Shown piece by piece: positions 1,443 through 7,802 of a stretch of DNA of 7,802 bases; the stretch's first letter is position 1, and each line of letters opens with the position of its first letter. The notes below the pieces were generated by a model, which worked only from the letters and a program-made list of their open reading frames with translations, did not search any database and had not been told where the DNA came from. Made by a program: the position numbers and the translations under genes. Source of the stretch: Naegleria gruberi (taxonomy: Eukaryota); NCBI GenBank assembly GCA_000004985.1, contig GG739105.1; one strand, written 5' to 3'.

Positions 1443-2354
1443 NNNNNNNNNNNNNNNNNNNNNNNNNNNNNNNNNNNNNNNNNNNNNNNNNNNNNNNNNN
1501 NNNNNNNNNNNNNNNNNNNNNNNNNNNNNNNNNNNNNNNNNNNNNNNNNNNNNNNNNNNNNNNNNNNNNNNNNNNNNNNNNNNNNNNNNNNNNNNNNNNN
1601 NNNNNNNNNNNNNNNNNNNNNNNNNNNNNNNNNNNNNNNNNNNNNNNNNNNNNNNNNNNNNNNNNNNNNNNNNNNNNNNNNNNNNNNNNNNNNNNNNNNN
1701 NNNNNNNNNNNNNNNNNNNNNNNNNNNNNNNNNNNNNNNNNNNNNNNNNNNNNNNNNNNNNNNNNNNNNNNNNNNNNNNNNNNNNNNNNNNNNNNNNNNN
1801 NNNNNNNNNNNNNNNNNNNNNNNNNNNNNNNNNNNNNNNNNNNNNNNNNNNNNNNNNNNNNNNNNNNNNNNNNNNNNNNNNNNNNNNNNNNNNNNNNNNN
1901 NNNNNNNNNNNNNNNNNNNNNNNNNNNNNNNNNNNNNNNNNNNNNNNNNNNNNNNNNNNNNNNNNNNNNNNNNNNNNNNNNNNNNNNNNNNNNNNNNNNN
2001 NNNNNNNNNNNNNNNNNNNNNNNNNNNNNNNNNNNNNNNNNNNNNNNNNNNNNNNNNNNNNNNNNNNNNNNNNNNNNNNNNNNNNNNNNNNNNNNNNNNN
2101 NNNNNNNNNNNNNNNNNNNNNNNNNNNNNNNNNNNNNNNNNNNNNNNNNNNNNNNNNNNNNNNNNNNNNNNNNNNNNNNNNNNNNNNNNNNNNNNNNNNN
2201 NNNNNNNNNNNNNNNNNNNNNNNNNNNNNNNNNNNNNNNNNNNNNNNNNNNNNNNNNNNNNNNNNNNNNNNNNNNNNNNNNNNNNNNNNNNNNNNNNNNN
2301 NNNNNNNNNNNNNNNNNNNNNNNNNNNNNNNNNNNNNNNNNNNNNNNNNNNNNN
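1443..2354. other. Assembly gap (912 N).
   Basis: Uninterrupted run of n characters. The true length and content are unknown. The track ORFs 1274..2374(-), 1376..2443(+) and 1435..2364(+) exist only because N codons are read as X. Confidence 0.99.
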
Positions 2355-2758: not shown

Positions 2759-5700
2759 TTAATTGTCTTGTGTTGAATTCATAAATAGGTCTTCACAAAA
2801 GAAATCATGCATGAAATCATAATCATTTTGACCAATGGGTTCCTCATTGCATGGAAGACTATTTAAATTCCAAATATCGTCTTCCTCTAAAAAATTATCA
2901 AAAGATCCGATTGAATGTGGATTATCTTGGCTAACAATTATTGAGTTAGGTGAAGATTCAGATATTGAACTGGATGTTCTTGTTTCCTTTCTTAAACTTA
3001 TATCATCTTCAATATTAGCCTCTTGTTGAATTCGTTTCTTCCTTCCACATTTTTGTTTTGTGGAATAAACACATTCCTTATTTAAACGTTTACAATGAAT
3101 ACAAGGCTTTCCACTATTGCATCTAATTTTCAACTTAACACATGAGTCACACGAACTTCTGAATTCTGTTCCATTTAAATCAACATTCCTTTCTTTGAGT
3201 TTTGTCTGAATTCTCTTTTTAATTTTTCTTCTAACCGTATTATTCTTCTTAATTTTGTTGTTGTCTTCCTTATTGCCTTCTGAATCTGATTCATCAGCTT
3301 CAGGTGGTTCGTTCTCAATAACTATTTTTTTCCAAATATTCTTTTGAACATGGCAATATACAGAATTTTTCTTTTCTTCACTAAAATCTGACAAACTTTC
3401 AGAACATGATTTCAGTTTCTCGAAATCTTGTTTTAAAGTTGCCAATGTTGTTTGCCATTCTGAACTAATCTGCATATTAGGATTTGTTTTCAATCCGTGC
3501 CATTTCTTTTTGAACTTGGAGGACATGTATAACGTACGTGTAGGAAGCAAAATAGATTCTGCAAAGGAAGGTAAATTGAATTTACCTTTATGATTTGATT
3601 TTCTTTGACCTATCATTCTACCAAGGGAATGATATGCTTCACATCCTTGATTCATATATTTTGTTAAGCTTCCATACTTTTCCAAAAGATCCGGTAAATG
3701 ATACAAAATAATATTAATATAGTAAGCAAGTTGATCATTTGGAAAGGCTTCTCTTAAAACCTTTTTAGTGAAACTCAAATACTCTTTCAATTCTTCTTTC
3801 TTAAAATTCAAATCCAATAGCCCTTGACTGGCTTCAAGGTAATGATATATTATGAATCTAAGTGATGACCACACTTTAAAATCATTATCATTAAATTGGG
3901 TATCCGATAATGATTCCATCATAATTGATTCATAATTTAACAAAATCATATCAGCTTGATCTGCATTCATATAAGGAACTTCTAATTCAATTTTGTCATT
4001 TGTCGCTTGTAGAGCAAGTGTTGTGGCAGGTTGTTTCTTTCTAAATTGAAATTGAGACATTCCCTTCAATTTCTGAATTTTAGCTTCGAGGGATTTAATT
4101 CCTGACACTGTCATCTTAGAAATTTGAAGGGATAACAAACAGCCAACAATTCTCAATTTTGCATGAAGTATGTCAATAACTACATTGGTGAATAAATTTG
4201 GAAATTTTTGAAAATAATGAGCTGGGGGAGCAAAAGCAAAATCCTTCTCCATTCTATCATCATATACACAGGGACAATATGGACACACAAAGTTTCGTTT
4301 GATGTCAGAAATCTTCCATAATGCACTTAAATCCGTACATACGTACATTGTGCAAGGAATATCTTTTGATTGTCCTGTTTTTTCTGATTTGTATGTTATA
4401 GTCTTTAAATCATTAAAATATGTCATGGTTTTTTGAAAATAGCAGAAAACATTAGCTTTTGTTTCTTTCCCCTTATACATATCAGTAATGAATACATTGT
4501 TCCTACACTGAGTGGAAAGTTCAGAATTTAAAATTACAAAGCAACAAACAACCTCCCCTCCAGCTCTTCCATCCCAAAATAATTTCAATTCTAATTTCTC
4601 TGGTATGGAAATATCTTCGTTTTCTAACATTATAAGAGCATCATTTAAAACCAAGCCAGGATCAAGATGTATTCCATTAGAATCAGATGTGATCTTGTAT
4701 CTATCAATTATTTCCAAATCAATTTCACCTCTCCTATCAGCAAGCTCATTTACAGAAATCATTATGTTCTGTAAATTGTAAAATTTAACTATTTCATCAT
4801 ATAATCCATCTGATAATAAATTCTTATCTGTAAAATATACAGAGCTAGTGGCATCATAATTAGATAATAAATCTTTGTTTGAAATTTTCATTATTATTTC
4901 ATTAAGGTCTTTTGAATTTTGTGACCTCTCCTGCAATTTCCTAAATATTAGTTCACTATCTCTTTCAAACAAATAATCAATAAAATCATTCATTGTTTGG
5001 CCATTGGATTGTAATAATTCATCCACACCAAAATATAATCTCTCTCCATTAGCCTTTCTTGATTGAGAAGTTAATTGTGACAAATTTTTTGTTGACCTAC
5101 GGGACTTTCTAGGTTGAACAAAATTTTGCTCACAATTAGAACATACCAATCCGAAAGAAGAGCTGACATTAATTTGTTTTTTTTCTCTATCTTTTCGTAT
5201 TGGTTTATTTGTTTCTTCTGTCGAGCCTTGTTTACTAGAAGTACCAGTAATTATTGGTTTATTTGAAACCTCTACATGAATATTTCGATCTTGAATTTTT
5301 CTAATTTCTGCTTTCAACTTCTCTGTTTCTTTCTCTGCAATCACTTGTTCCAGTAATTTATTCATTAACCATTCATTAACATCACCACTAATTTCACATC
5401 CTTTTGAGGTTAAAAAATTGAAAAGGCAAACCTTATCAACTATTGTAGATTCCACATCATAAATTCTAAATCCTGATGAAACATGTTGTTGCTGTCCCCA
5501 ATAAGCCTCTCTCTTTAAATTTCTATATTTATCCCAATGACTTGGAATTGTATAAAAGGAGTTTGGTACTACTTTACTGACAACATCAAAATCACTGGCA
5601 TTGGAATATTCATATTCAATTAGTCTTATATTTTTGAATAAAAATGGCATTCCTTGTATTTTTTCTGAACCTGTATTATTGTTCAATTGATGTTCATTAT

Positions 5701-5884
5701 CCACATTTTGTTGAATTATTTCTGTACTTTTGTTTTGGTTGTAAAAACAATCTTGACATATTAAACTTGCTGCTAATTTTTTCTTTCGTAACTCTTCACT
5801 GACAAAATTTGTTTCTTGAAATATACTGTTTCCTTTGTAAACATTTACAACATGTCTTTGTTTCCATTTTTTTTTAATTTTCAA
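2759..5884 (-). CDS. EnSpm/CACTA-superfamily (Transposase_21 / Plavaka-KDZ-like) transposase core fused to a C-terminal Zn2Cys6 binuclear-cluster DNA-binding module. 5884 is the upstream limit of the open frame (TTG, not ATG). The first in-frame ATG is at 5650..5648 (Met79); an upstream exon is possible.
   Basis: A 1041-codon uninterrupted frame is very unlikely by chance in 30% GC DNA. Residues 431-440 LELKLFWDGR resemble the first-Asp block of plant CACTA TnpD (L-G-L-x-x-D-G-F-x-P-F, recalled from memory). Residues 516-537 CTDLSALWKISDIKRNFVCPYC resemble W-T-I-N-D-F-P-A-...-A-C-P-Y-C: the Asp-to-CPYC spacing is about 16, close to what I recall for the plant block. Residues 568-585 NVVIDILHAKLRIVGCLL resemble N-L-D-V-M-H-I-E-K-N-V-C-D-S-L-L-G. 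Residues 912-937 CDSCVKLKIRCNSGKPCIHCKRLNKEC match the Zn2Cys6 pattern exactly. Cys pairs upstream of the core (C43xxC46, C153..C163, C248xxC251) are compatible with KDZ-type CxC clusters. The CACTA motifs are recalled from memory, not from a search. Confidence 0.75.
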   Translation of the reverse strand: MKIKKKWKQRHVVNVYKGNSIFQETNFVSEELRKKKLAASLICQDCFYNQNKSTEIIQQNVDNEHQLNNNTGSEKIQGMPFLFKNIRLIEYEYSNASDFDVVSKVVPNSFYTIPSHWDKYRNLKREAYWGQQQHVSSGFRIYDVESTIVDKVCLFNFLTSKGCEISGDVNEWLMNKLLEQVIAEKETEKLKAEIRKIQDRNIHVEVSNKPIITGTSSKQGSTEETNKPIRKDREKKQINVSSSFGLVCSNCEQNFVQPRKSRRSTKNLSQLTSQSRKANGERLYFGVDELLQSNGQTMNDFIDYLFERDSELIFRKLQERSQNSKDLNEIIMKISNKDLLSNYDATSSVYFTDKNLLSDGLYDEIVKFYNLQNIMISVNELADRRGEIDLEIIDRYKITSDSNGIHLDPGLVLNDALIMLENEDISIPEKLELKLFWDGRAGGEVVCCFVILNSELSTQCRNNVFITDMYKGKETKANVFCYFQKTMTYFNDLKTITYKSEKTGQSKDIPCTMYVCTDLSALWKISDIKRNFVCPYCPCVYDDRMEKDFAFAPPAHYFQKFPNLFTNVVIDILHAKLRIVGCLLSLQISKMTVSGIKSLEAKIQKLKGMSQFQFRKKQPATTLALQATNDKIELEVPYMNADQADMILLNYESIMMESLSDTQFNDNDFKVWSSLRFIIYHYLEASQGLLDLNFKKEELKEYLSFTKKVLREAFPNDQLAYYINIILYHLPDLLEKYGSLTKYMNQGCEAYHSLGRMIGQRKSNHKGKFNLPSFAESILLPTRTLYMSSKFKKKWHGLKTNPNMQISSEWQTTLATLKQDFEKLKSCSESLSDFSEEKKNSVYCHVQKNIWKKIVIENEPPEADESDSEGNKEDNNKIKKNNTVRRKIKKRIQTKLKERNVDLNGTEFRSSCDSCVKLKIRCNSGKPCIHCKRLNKECVYSTKQKCGRKKRIQQEANIEDDISLRKETRTSSSISESSPNSIIVSQDNPHSIGSFDNFLEEDDIWNLNSLPCNEEPIGQNDYDFMHDFFCEDLFMNSTQDN
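3074..3151 (-). other. Zn(2)-Cys(6) fungal binuclear cluster motif (Gal4-type), residues 912-937, preceded by a basic NLS-like stretch RRKIKKRIQTKLKER and followed by a basic linker KQKCGRKKRIQQE.
   Basis: The exact spacing C-x2-C-x6-C-x5-C-x2-C-x6-C is visible in the translation. Lys/Arg residues fall at the expected positions between Cys2-Cys3 and after Cys6. Confidence 0.85.
4130..4747 (-). other. Transposase_21-like catalytic core region (about residues 380-585 of the 1041-aa frame). Candidate first Asp D438 (nt 4571..4573), second Asp D518 (nt 4331..4333), CPYC (nt 4274..4285), DxxH block (nt 4130..4177).
   Basis: I translated the motifs directly and checked them against the minus-strand nucleotides. 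The family assignment rests on established knowledge of CACTA/EnSpm TnpD conserved blocks. Confidence 0.55.
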
Positions 5885-5981: not shown

Positions 5982-6737
5982 TTATTTTGTTGTAAAGAAT
6001 GCACCTTCTTTCTCTCTCACCACCATCGTACAACATTCAATTTCCCAATTACAATAAACTCTGTTAGTTCTAGAATTTACAACAATTGTAAGAGTCTTAT
6101 ATTCAGCAAATTGCAATGGTTTGTTGTGAATATCTTCAACTTTGGGAAACATGTCATTTCTCCACCATCTATCACATTCGAAAGTAGGAAATCCACAGGC
6201 CAACACAAAGTGATATTTGAATAATTTAACTTGATGAGTTTCATATCCGACTGTTTGTTCATCATATACAACATCCTTTGCACATTGATAATTTCTTGTT
6301 ATTATTTTGTCAAAAATTGCATAATTCATATTTCCAAGATTCAATCCATTTCCAAACTTTACATTTCCAAATGTTAAATTATCCTTTAGTACTGTTGTAG
6401 CATCAATACAAAATTCCTTCCATTTCTTTTGTGCATAATCAATAAATTCAGTATCTGTTGTGATGCTCAATTTGTTCTTCAAGTCTTCAATTATCCTGTT
6501 ATACTCATCATCACTAATTGGGATGGCCTTGAAGGATCTGACCTTGTCAATATGTTTCTGTTCCAACTCCAACATTTTAGCCCATAATGGTTTCTTAAAC
6601 TTTTTTCCGGCCTGTGTTTTCATCTTGCTGCTTGTGTCTTTAGAAACCTTGTTGGGCTTTCTATTTAACATGAATTCTTTATAGAATGTTGGATCATAGG
6701 TGATAAAACTTGTTGTTTGCTTCAATGTTTTAGGCAT
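5982..6737 (-). CDS. Hypothetical 251-aa protein with a basic N-terminus and a Cys/His-rich C-terminal half. Possibly an accessory (TnpA-like) protein of the same element, or the 5' exon of the downstream transposase gene.
   Basis: True ATG at 6737..6735 and stop TAA at 5984..5982. The ORF is co-oriented with the transposase frame and only 97 nt upstream of it. It has a lysine-rich segment (KPNKVSKDTSSKMKTQAGKKFKKP). H168, H176, C181, C188, H204, C229, C235 and C236 could bind metal. I recognise no family. Confidence 0.55.
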   Translation of the reverse strand: MPKTLKQTTSFITYDPTFYKEFMLNRKPNKVSKDTSSKMKTQAGKKFKKPLWAKMLELEQKHIDKVRSFKAIPISDDEYNRIIEDLKNKLSITTDTEFIDYAQKKWKEFCIDATTVLKDNLTFGNVKFGNGLNLGNMNYAIFDKIITRNYQCAKDVVYDEQTVGYETHQVKLFKYHFVLACGFPTFECDRWWRNDMFPKVEDIHNKPLQFAEYKTLTIVVNSRTNRVYCNWEIECCTMVVREKEGAFFTTK

Positions 6738-6914
6738 TGTATGGTTGTGTTATTTTGTTGTGTGGTGGTGGTTTACATTGTGAAGTAAAGTCATTTTATT
6801 CTGTGATGACACTATTTTTTTGCTCCGTCCTTGCATTGTATTCAGTACTTTTGCATCTTTATTTATCAGAAACAAAAATATAAAATATTTTGCAATTACA
6901 ACAAAAACAAAACA
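6738..6914. promoter_or_regulatory. 177-bp divergent intergenic region between ATG 6737 (minus-strand gene) and ATG 6915 (plus-strand gene). Putative bidirectional promoter. TATAAAA at 6879..6885 faces the plus gene.
   Basis: The two start codons face away from each other across 177 bp. An A-rich leader (acaacaaaaacaaaacaATGG) precedes the plus ATG. On the minus strand an ACCACCACCACACAACAAAATAACACAACCATAC leader precedes ATG 6737. Confidence 0.4.
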
Positions 6915-7802
6915 ATGGATGGAGCCTTGGTTGTTTTTAAAGGCGTAGAAGAGCCACAGTTGCACAATAGTTTTGGGTTTTTAAAAGGCTTCAGGGATAC
7001 GGTAACCGTTAGCGTATTCATTCCGAAGTTAACTCCACAAGAAGCAGTGGAAAACTTTGCTGTTGTCTTCAGAGAATACAATCCTGAGAAGAAGACAATT
7101 TCATCCAAAACACAACAAACACTTCAGTATCCCTTTACAAGGTCAATCTTCTCCCCAAAAGAAGAAATAATTGATTTCGAATTTCAAGATAATTTCTGGT
7201 TTAAACGAGATGATATTCCCGATATTAAATTTTATTATGCAAAGGCAACATTCAAATTGGCAAAACTAAAATTGAAGGAAAAGAAATTCTATGATGTTTC
7301 AATCAAGTCTGGAAAAAACTATTATCACAAATATTACATAATGATGGGACGACAGGAAGAATTTTCATGGACAAATTTTGCAGAAAGTTCAACGGCTAAC
7401 AAATCTGTAACGTTCTTTTTTGAAACTTTATTGATGAAACTCGAAGATATGGCAAAAGCACAGGAGTTAACAATGATATTATATTCAAAAATGATAATGG
7501 AGAGAAATGATACACACACATTCATCGCACAAATGGTTGCTGATGGAGCAAAGATAAAGTTTGAAAATATCACAGCCAGTCATTTAGAAAAGAGCCCTCC
7601 AGATTTATTAAATCAGTTATCTGGTGACCCATTTTACTTGATAGAATATTTATTAGATAGGACAGAGTTAGGTAGCAGAAAACAGTTTATTGAAAAGGTG
7701 TTAGATACTGACAGGGACCTGTGGTCATTAGTCCCACCTGAAATTTTTGATGCTATCAAACCCTCTCAAAAATCGTTAGCTGATGCTATCAATTTTATTG
7801 GG
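6915..7802 (+). CDS. 3'-truncated gene of unknown function. 296 codons from ATG 6915 to the window edge with no stop. It is not in the supplied ORF track because it never terminates inside the window.
   Basis: I translated it manually: MDGALVVFKGVEEPQLHNSFGFLKGF...SLADAINFIG, with no stop in 888 nt of 30% GC DNA. The upstream in-frame stop TGA is at 6807..6809 and the first ATG is at 6915. A TATAAAA lies at 6879..6885, about 30 nt upstream. No Walker A, BTB, Crinkler LFLAK/HVLVVVP or other signature is recognisable. Confidence 0.7.
   Translation, partial: MDGALVVFKGVEEPQLHNSFGFLKGFRDTVTVSVFIPKLTPQEAVENFAVVFREYNPEKKTISSKTQQTLQYPFTRSIFSPKEEIIDFEFQDNFWFKRDDIPDIKFYYAKATFKLAKLKLKEKKFYDVSIKSGKNYYHKYYIMMGRQEEFSWTNFAESSTANKSVTFFFETLLMKLEDMAKAQELTMILYSKMIMERNDTHTFIAQMVADGAKIKFENITASHLEKSPPDLLNQLSGDPFYLIEYLLDRTELGSRKQFIEKVLDTDRDLWSLVPPEIFDAIKPSQKSLADAINFIG

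Follow-up and report, generated by a model that had tools for sequence, protein, structure and literature searches.

The locus and its principal genes

The window, by which we mean the whole stretch of DNA analysed here, is an entire 7802-bp scaffold of the heterolobosean amoeboflagellate Naegleria gruberi, and its minus strand carries one long open reading frame (ORF) in which a transposase core is followed by a C-terminal Zn2Cys6 module of the GAL4 type, together with a small partner gene. A preliminary description of this DNA had reported the open 3.1-kb frame at 2759-5884 and its 1041 codons, and both stand, with the corrections that the frame lies on the minus strand, that the count runs from a TTG codon and that the start is probably the ATG at 5867. 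The features on which the text relies are the following.

2759..5884, minus strand: main ORF, transposase with C-terminal Zn2Cys6 module; 1041 codons, stop codon at 2759-2761
5798..5869, minus strand: probable true start, with the ATG at 5867-5869, reading METKTCCKCLQRKQYISRNKFCQ in the other frame; based on the N-termini of P0002 and P0003
5131..5155, minus strand: FGLxCxxC motif, residues 244-251 (C248/C251); conserved, and common to paralogues without the zinc cluster
3587..4579, minus strand: catalytic core, residues 436-766; based on family alignment, profiles and predicted structure
4571-4573 (D438), 4331-4333 (D518) and 4274-4285 (C534/C537), minus strand: core residues, with E474 between D438 and D518
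4163-4165 (H574), 3698-3715 (N724/H729) and 3638-3640 (E749), minus strand: further core residues, position 724 being His in other family members
3050..3154, minus strand: Zn2Cys6 binuclear cluster domain, residues 911-945 (Cys 912-938); Pfam match with basic flanks
2762..3025, minus strand: acidic C-terminal tail, residues 954-1041; 88 residues with a net charge of -17
5982..6737, minus strand: partner gene of 251 amino acids (aa), P0156; based on homology to genes adjoining the transposases of the family
1444..2354, no strand: assembly gap (run of N), which limits the search for an element end on that side

At the stop-codon frequency of 0.089 given by the local composition, the chance of so long an open frame is about 1e-42. 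Its first in-frame ATG is codon 79, and it is with this methionine that the NCBI gene model begins (P0001, an exact match annotated as 'predicted protein'). The probable start further upstream lies in another frame, in which METKTCCKC...FCQ* encodes a conserved N-terminal CCxC...CxxC motif with which the orthologues also open, and removing any one base within 5798-5812, a stretch of AAA/TTTT runs, fuses the ATG at 5867 to the main frame and yields an ORF of 1035 aa. To judge from the sequence, this one-nucleotide offset is likely to reflect either a homopolymer error of the assembly or a frameshift that arose very recently. The FGLxCxxC motif is a putative small zinc- or DNA-binding element upstream of the catalytic core.

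The catalytic core and its kinship

The middle of the protein is a DDE (Asp-Asp-Glu) transposase core. Three blocks mark it in the ORF, namely FWD438-G439-R, T517-D518-x15-C534-P-Y-C537 and D571-I-L-H574, and all of them are kept in the three orthologues P0001, P0002 and P0003; the preliminary description had recognised these DG, TD...CPYC and DxxH blocks, giving the second a spacing of 16 residues instead of 15. A profile built from three Naegleria-type cores after removal of the zinc cluster (A2) was searched exhaustively against 1.84 billion representative proteins and retrieved 178 of them at an expect value (E) of <=1e-3 and 63 at E<=1e-10. In a 50-member alignment of the family D518, C534 and H574 are invariant, and D438, E474, C537, H724, H729 and E749 are conserved in at least 90% of the sequences. 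It has been established that the arrangement D, D, C(2)C, H(3-4)H, E defines the EnSpm-Mirage-Chapaev-Transib (CMCT) clade, which includes RAG1 (PMC12730594), and the family carries this signature as D438, D518, C534-x2-C537, H724-x4-H729 (Asn724 in the window copy) and E749.

Within this clade, the available comparisons point to RAG1 and Transib. The Pfam RAG1 model is matched by 8 of the 50 relatives, among which P0065 reaches 30.1 bits and thus exceeds the gathering threshold of 25. When the 50-member alignment was used as a profile (A3), it matched zebrafish RAG1 (6e-15), amphioxus RAG1L (1.7e-11) and the Transib transposase of Helicoverpa (HzTransib, 5e-7), as well as mouse RAG1. The alignment pairs the family segment 'vsDL...ffCpfCd' with 'GYDE...YICTLCD' of zebrafish RAG1, and 'YiHIllkHlpd...sLgkfsnQGfEashkl' with 'YLHKTLAHVPE...SIGAWASEGNESGNKL', while the family's 'CtLH', which is the DxxH block of the preliminary description, is paired with 'DALH' of RAG1; the RAG1 residues aligned in the first two of these segments are, in RAG1 numbering, D708, C727, C730, H937, H942 and E962. 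An 11-member subgroup containing the RAG1-matching proteins (A8) aligns with A2 over 469 columns in hhalign (99.9% probability, E 2e-34), and A8 by itself retrieves from the PDB RAG1 and RAG1L chains only, the lowest E being 7e-7. When the window protein itself was scanned against Pfam at E<=10, Zn_clus was the sole match and RAG1 was not among the results.

The predicted structure agrees with these results. An AlphaFold2 model of residues 79-830 has a predicted local distance difference test (pLDDT) score above 90 through the catalytic region, and a Foldseek search of the PDB with this model found significant similarity to RAG1, BbRAGL and HzTransib structures only, in 48 matches (E 6e-12 to 3e-6) over 515-665 aligned columns and with template-modelling (TM) scores of 0.5-0.64 when normalised to the target, the next fold family following at E 0.03. 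The PDB contains no CACTA, Mirage or Chapaev structures and a fold search cannot separate those branches from RAG1/Transib, so that the preference for the latter branch rests on the Pfam and profile results. On this combination of profiles and modelled fold, we would place the core with RAG1/Transib inside the wider CACTA-Mirage-Chapaev-Transib clade.

A Zn2Cys6 module at the C-terminus

About 330 residues past the core blocks, the same frame encodes a zinc cluster, C912-x2-C-x6-C-x5-C-x2-C-x6-C938, whose spacing agrees with the canonical CX2CX6CX5-12CX2CX6-8C and which matches Zn_clus (PF00172) with 29.8 bits and E 6.5e-7 against a gathering threshold of 21. The presence of this cluster, its distance from the core and its basic flanks had all been described correctly beforehand. 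A phmmer search of the PDB with the protein returned weak matches to GAL4, LAC9 and PUT3 only. The cluster is followed by the acidic tail, which contains a DDIWN-type acidic-hydrophobic motif that is also found in P0002, and which resembles an activation domain.

The complete architecture recurs at 36-38% identity in the uninterrupted ORFs of P0003 from Naegleria lovaniensis and of P0002 from a Logan assembly (run SRR25266765), in which Zn_clus occupies the same position and scores 34.5 and 39.9 bits, respectively. The six cysteines are invariant in P0001, P0002 and P0003, the post-cluster VY..KKRGRK stretch is conserved, and basic flanks and acidic tails are present in all three. Thus, the joining of a transposase core to a C-terminal Zn2Cys6 cluster in one frame, which had been the central claim of the preliminary description, is borne out by single ORFs in two further genomes.

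The module shares with transcription factors of the GAL4/LAC9/PUT3 type the spacing of the six cysteines, the basic residues and an acidic C-terminal region. It differs from them in being placed at the C-terminus of a transposase of about 1000 aa, whereas theirs is N-terminal in a regulator, and in that the fungal middle-homology region was not found by Pfam. The earlier contrast with the N-terminal clusters of fungal regulators had assumed a fungal setting and is beside the point, because Naegleria does not belong to the fungi.

Other additions are found at this end in two relatives of the transposase, P0015 and P0032 (both from Logan assemblies), where a Peptidase_C48 domain of the Ulp1 type takes the place of Zn_clus. 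The C-terminus of the family thus gains extra domains repeatedly and can be regarded as modular. Paralogues without Zn_clus are multi-copy in N. gruberi (P0010/P0153) and are also present in Willaertia magna.

A two-gene element in Naegleria and its relatives

Homologues of the partner gene directly adjoin every full-length family member examined. The partner in the window is 35-41% identical to the genes beside P0003 and P0002, and 23-30% identical (pairwise E 1e-5 to 4e-11) to the partners in the smaller elements L003/L004 and L005. The gene lies directly 3' of the transposase and convergent with it in L001, L002, L003, L004, L005, L007 and the deleted copy L008; in the N. gruberi window it is found on the 5' side of the transposase, at a distance of 97 bp and in the same orientation, a layout shared with Willaertia, where the homologue is a weak one, and the order of the two genes therefore differs between species. 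The protein of about 250 aa is of mixed alpha/beta structure in a low-confidence model and bears no resemblance to Kelch proteins or RAG2.

The mobile nature of this gene pair is most apparent in N. lovaniensis, in which the Zn_clus protein is encoded on three contigs, as P0003 and P0159, each of 1131 aa and containing Zn_clus, and as P0160, which is shorter. The identity among these proteins is 90% or more, and the copies that encode them are 95-99% identical. Two of these copies (L001 and L007) share 6.9 kb at 99.15% identity between unrelated flanks, and the third (L008) has suffered two internal deletions and is truncated at one end. The boundaries of the full copies are as follows.

L001 5851-12808 and L007 5851-12797, N. 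lovaniensis: Zn_clus element of about 6.95 kb

The element consists of a 2.15-kb 5' region without a long ORF, the transposase gene and the convergent partner gene of about 265 aa, and it is bounded by imperfect inverted repeats about 21 bp long (left, CAATTGGGGAGGCGGACAATT; right, as reverse complement, CAATGCAGAGGCAGGACAATT). The 12-mer CGCAAGCGAAAA is found about 60 bp in from each end and both ends also share the motif TAAATAGC, which gives them a bipartite structure, while the left end carries in addition the palindrome TTGCGAAA-TT-TTTCGCAA; the 12-mer, the shared motif and the palindrome are candidate protein-binding sites. Between L001 and L007 the ORF has diverged by 0.71% (11 synonymous and 13 non-synonymous changes) and the non-coding part by 0.79%, and such equal divergence is what is expected of copies that drift after insertion.

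A sister element of 3.73 kb is present on two N. lovaniensis contigs (L003 5653-9385 and L004 5653-9342) in copies that are 99.4% identical. It is bounded by a perfect 12-bp terminal inverted repeat (TIR), CAATACAACCAC, and codes for a RAG1-like transposase of 776 aa without Zn_clus and for a convergent partner of 246 aa.

In Naegleria fowleri, the sister species of N. lovaniensis, only the C-terminal half of the gene is left. It contains frameshifts and has an internal piece in inverted orientation, and the partner gene is missing. This relic lies inside a duplicated segment of 9.5 kb with 98.7% identity near two contig ends (L009 463-9988 and L010 470-9993), which may be a subtelomeric or repeat-rich duplication. 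A reverse-transcriptase gene (RVT_1) is situated near the relic in L010. When the window is compared with L001 and L002, the transposase and its partner are all that the three have in common, and there is no flanking synteny.

Taken together, we regard it as probable that the ORF is the transposase of a two-gene family of TIR-bounded DNA transposons in Naegleria and related heteroloboseans. The preliminary description had rightly posed two alternatives, namely a transposase that borrowed a DNA-binding domain and a host regulator built from a domesticated transposase, and the former is favoured because of the multi-copy, TIR-bounded elements in N. lovaniensis. According to this transposon scenario, the central 500 residues or so would form an RNase-H-like DDE nuclease of the RAG1/Transib type, with a predicted active site of D438, D518 and E749, a triad that is intact in the window protein, a zinc site of C534/C537 and H724/H729, and H574, mapped through the RAG1 alignment, and this core would cut and rejoin the element ends. 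One sublineage would then have gained at the C-terminus of its transposase a complete GAL4-like module, in which basic stretches flank the Zn2Cys6 cluster on both sides and the acidic tail follows. With the zinc cluster the transposase could bind DNA sequence-specifically, be it at subterminal sites of the element or in the target, and through the acidic tail it may activate transcription or regulate itself. The partner, as the second conserved component, would act as an accessory subunit.

Comparison with known transposon systems

The closest known systems are the Transib/RAGL transposons, with CACTA, Mirage and Chapaev as cousins at the level of the clade. With Transib, RAG1 and RAGL proteins (PF12940; PDB 6PQN, 4WWX and 6B40) the family shares its fold and the residue order D...E...D-x15-CxxC...LH...HxxxxH-x19-E. 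Similarly, Transib and RAGL elements are TIR-bounded cut-and-paste elements, and RAGL/ProtoRAG elements also have two genes, of which the second is usually convergent; a convergent layout of the two genes is what is outlined for RAG1L-RAG2L transposons in PMC7204232 (see also PMC9435367). The differences are nevertheless considerable. Structure-based identity to Transib/RAG1 is only 10-13%, with the window protein itself giving no direct match to Pfam RAG1, and the termini begin with CAAT instead of a heptamer of the CAC(A/T)GTG type. Transib and RAGL elements generate target-site duplications (TSDs) of 5 bp, and CACTA elements TSDs of 3 bp; no 5-bp TSD was seen here. Moreover, the present family has a C-terminal Zn2Cys6 module with an acidic tail, a non-Kelch partner of about 250 aa and a heterolobosean host. 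The likeness to CACTA/EnSpm, Mirage and Chapaev consists of the shared C(2)C and H(3-4)H motifs and of the Ulp1-protease additions at the C-terminus of relatives, against which stand the lack of a Transposase_21 match, of CACTA termini and of a TSD of 2-4 bp.

Evidence against mobility and alternative explanations

Several observations weigh against the interpretation as a mobile element of RAG1/Transib kinship. No TSD was seen at four well-defined insertions (L001, L007, L003 and L004), which is odd for a DDE transposon, and CGG/CCG half-sites, the usual targets of Zn2Cys6 proteins, which bind them as dimers by means of a neighbouring coiled-coil, are not enriched at the ends of the N. lovaniensis element, although this is indirect evidence. 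In the window, a repeat search and a k-mer scan that had been validated on L003 yielded only chance-level pairs of candidate TIRs, and the terminal motifs of L003 and L001 were not found either. Within N. gruberi only a 1-kb stretch (aa 545-884) recurs, with 100% identity on another scaffold, and no second full copy was found; hence, of the copy-number and TIR comparison that the preliminary description had put forward, the near-identical, TIR-bearing copies were found in N. lovaniensis and not in N. gruberi. The N. gruberi partner protein is unique in the protein collection searched. In addition, residue 724 of the window copy, which elsewhere in the family is the leading His of the H(4)H zinc site, is an Asn, and this change together with the apparent N-terminal frameshift means that the copy may be inactive. 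Finally, the Naegleria-only profile A2 and an 11-sequence profile of heterolobosean type (A4) gave nothing relevant in the PDB, and the link to RAG1 is transitive and structural because neither of them reaches RAG1 directly.

Some of these observations would be explained if the gene had been domesticated, that is, if the transposase-Zn2Cys6 protein had been co-opted in N. gruberi, and perhaps throughout the genus, as a transcription factor or programmed recombinase, possibly with selection keeping the protein together with its partner in the manner of RAG1/RAG2 or of PiggyMac. The long ORF has stayed intact and its catalytic residues have persisted in proteins that share only 36-38% identity between species, a DNA-binding domain with an acidic tail looks like a complete transcription-factor module, the two genes are linked in all species, and N. 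gruberi has neither a detectable TIR in the window nor a second copy of the partner, the H724N replacement being a change that could reflect a relaxed catalytic need. On the other hand, the three N. lovaniensis copies have TIRs, 95-99% identity and unrelated flanks, their coding and non-coding parts drift equally, the N. fowleri gene has decayed, and the two-gene unit alone is common to the loci of three species. Domestication is on this account unlikely, and the two-gene transposon remains the favoured interpretation.

It is considerably less probable that the core belongs to a CACTA/EnSpm (Transposase_21/TnpD) or KDZ transposase, as the preliminary description had proposed for the former. 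P0008 does match the nematode family DUF1280 weakly (24.8 bits, just below threshold), and the structures that would allow a comparison with CACTA, Chapaev or Mirage are missing from the PDB. However, the Pfam models of Transposase_21, KDZ and CxC have no match in the protein at E<=10 or in any of its 50 relatives, eight of which match RAG1, and the N. lovaniensis termini begin with CAAT, not CACTA, without a 3-bp TSD having been seen. The motifs had thus been identified correctly and the branch misnamed, because CACTA/EnSpm is a cousin in the same CMCT clade that shares C(2)C and H(3-4)H, whereas the detectable kinship is to RAG1/Transib.

That the Zn2Cys6 part derives from another gene and was joined to the core by misassembly is hardly credible, even though the scaffold that makes up the window is small (7.8 kb) and gapped and the N. 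gruberi protein P0004 (NAEGRDRAFT_73573, on a 290-kb scaffold), which is 100% identical to aa 545-884 (window 3233-4252), continues past aa 884 into an unrelated acidic tail that the window does not encode, since the order of core, homologous linker, Zn2Cys6 cluster and acidic tail is conserved across species in single ORFs at two N. lovaniensis loci and in the Logan assembly, and since the sequence at the break in P0004, ACT|GTT, could serve as a splice donor, which makes P0004 the more probable artefact. Judged by this junction, P0004 is likely to reflect either an error of gene modelling or the same locus assembled twice, and it could also be a second locus or a haplotype duplicate.

Other features of the window

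On the minus strand, positions 1277-1441 contain the last 55 codons of a gene that runs into the assembly gap, with a sub-threshold match to a Pumilio repeat (18.5 bits). The 'ORFs' of 366, 355 and 309 aa that span 1444-2354 are artefacts of the run of N. Only about 175 bp past the partner gene, the plus strand has a stop-free frame of 331 codons (6810-7802, first ATG near 6915) which is divergent from the partner and runs off the scaffold; it has no confident Pfam match (MutS_IV, at 19.8 bits, is below threshold), it is missing from all related loci, and it probably represents a host gene next to the element. Neither the Rfam nor the tRNA scan gave a match in the window.

Novelty and biological significance

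The mobile element described here is unusual, although it is not a categorically new kind. It represents a divergent two-gene family of RAG1/Transib-like character with CAAT termini, no visible TSD and a novel partner, one sublineage of which has captured a GAL4-type module with an acidic region. RAGL elements have been reported in unicellular eukaryotes from the alga Aureococcus, together with 'fragments in other primitive eukaryotes' (PMC9435367), and the Aureococcus case was the sole report of this kind found in our literature search. Likewise, literature searches found nothing that links Naegleria with Transib, Chapaev or Zn2Cys6, nor any fusion of a transposase with Zn2Cys6.

A bolder proposal, which we hold to be doubtful, is that of a deep-branching heterolobosean RAG1-like lineage with two subunits, in which the non-Kelch partner would be obligatory and a functional analogue of RAG2, the transposase of one branch would also be a Zn2Cys6/acidic transcription factor, and integration would proceed without TSDs. 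If true, this would amount to an independent invention of the two-gene architecture of RAG1/RAG2, or to a relic of its ancestral state.

Transposases of the RAG1/Transib type attract study because V(D)J recombination in vertebrates derives from them, and outside animals their deep history has been sampled only poorly. The heterolobosean family broadens the known diversity of the clade by its conserved partner gene, its unusual termini, the absence of a TSD and the presence in N. lovaniensis of recent copies that appear to be intact, and it provides a culturable system for asking what leads transposases of this kind to take on a second subunit. The Zn2Cys6 fusion clearly exemplifies the gain, by a transposase, of the DNA-binding and activation module of a eukaryotic transcription factor, whereas the usual route runs in the opposite direction, with transcription factors arising from transposases, and a transposase fused to Zn2Cys6 is in turn candidate raw material for new regulators.

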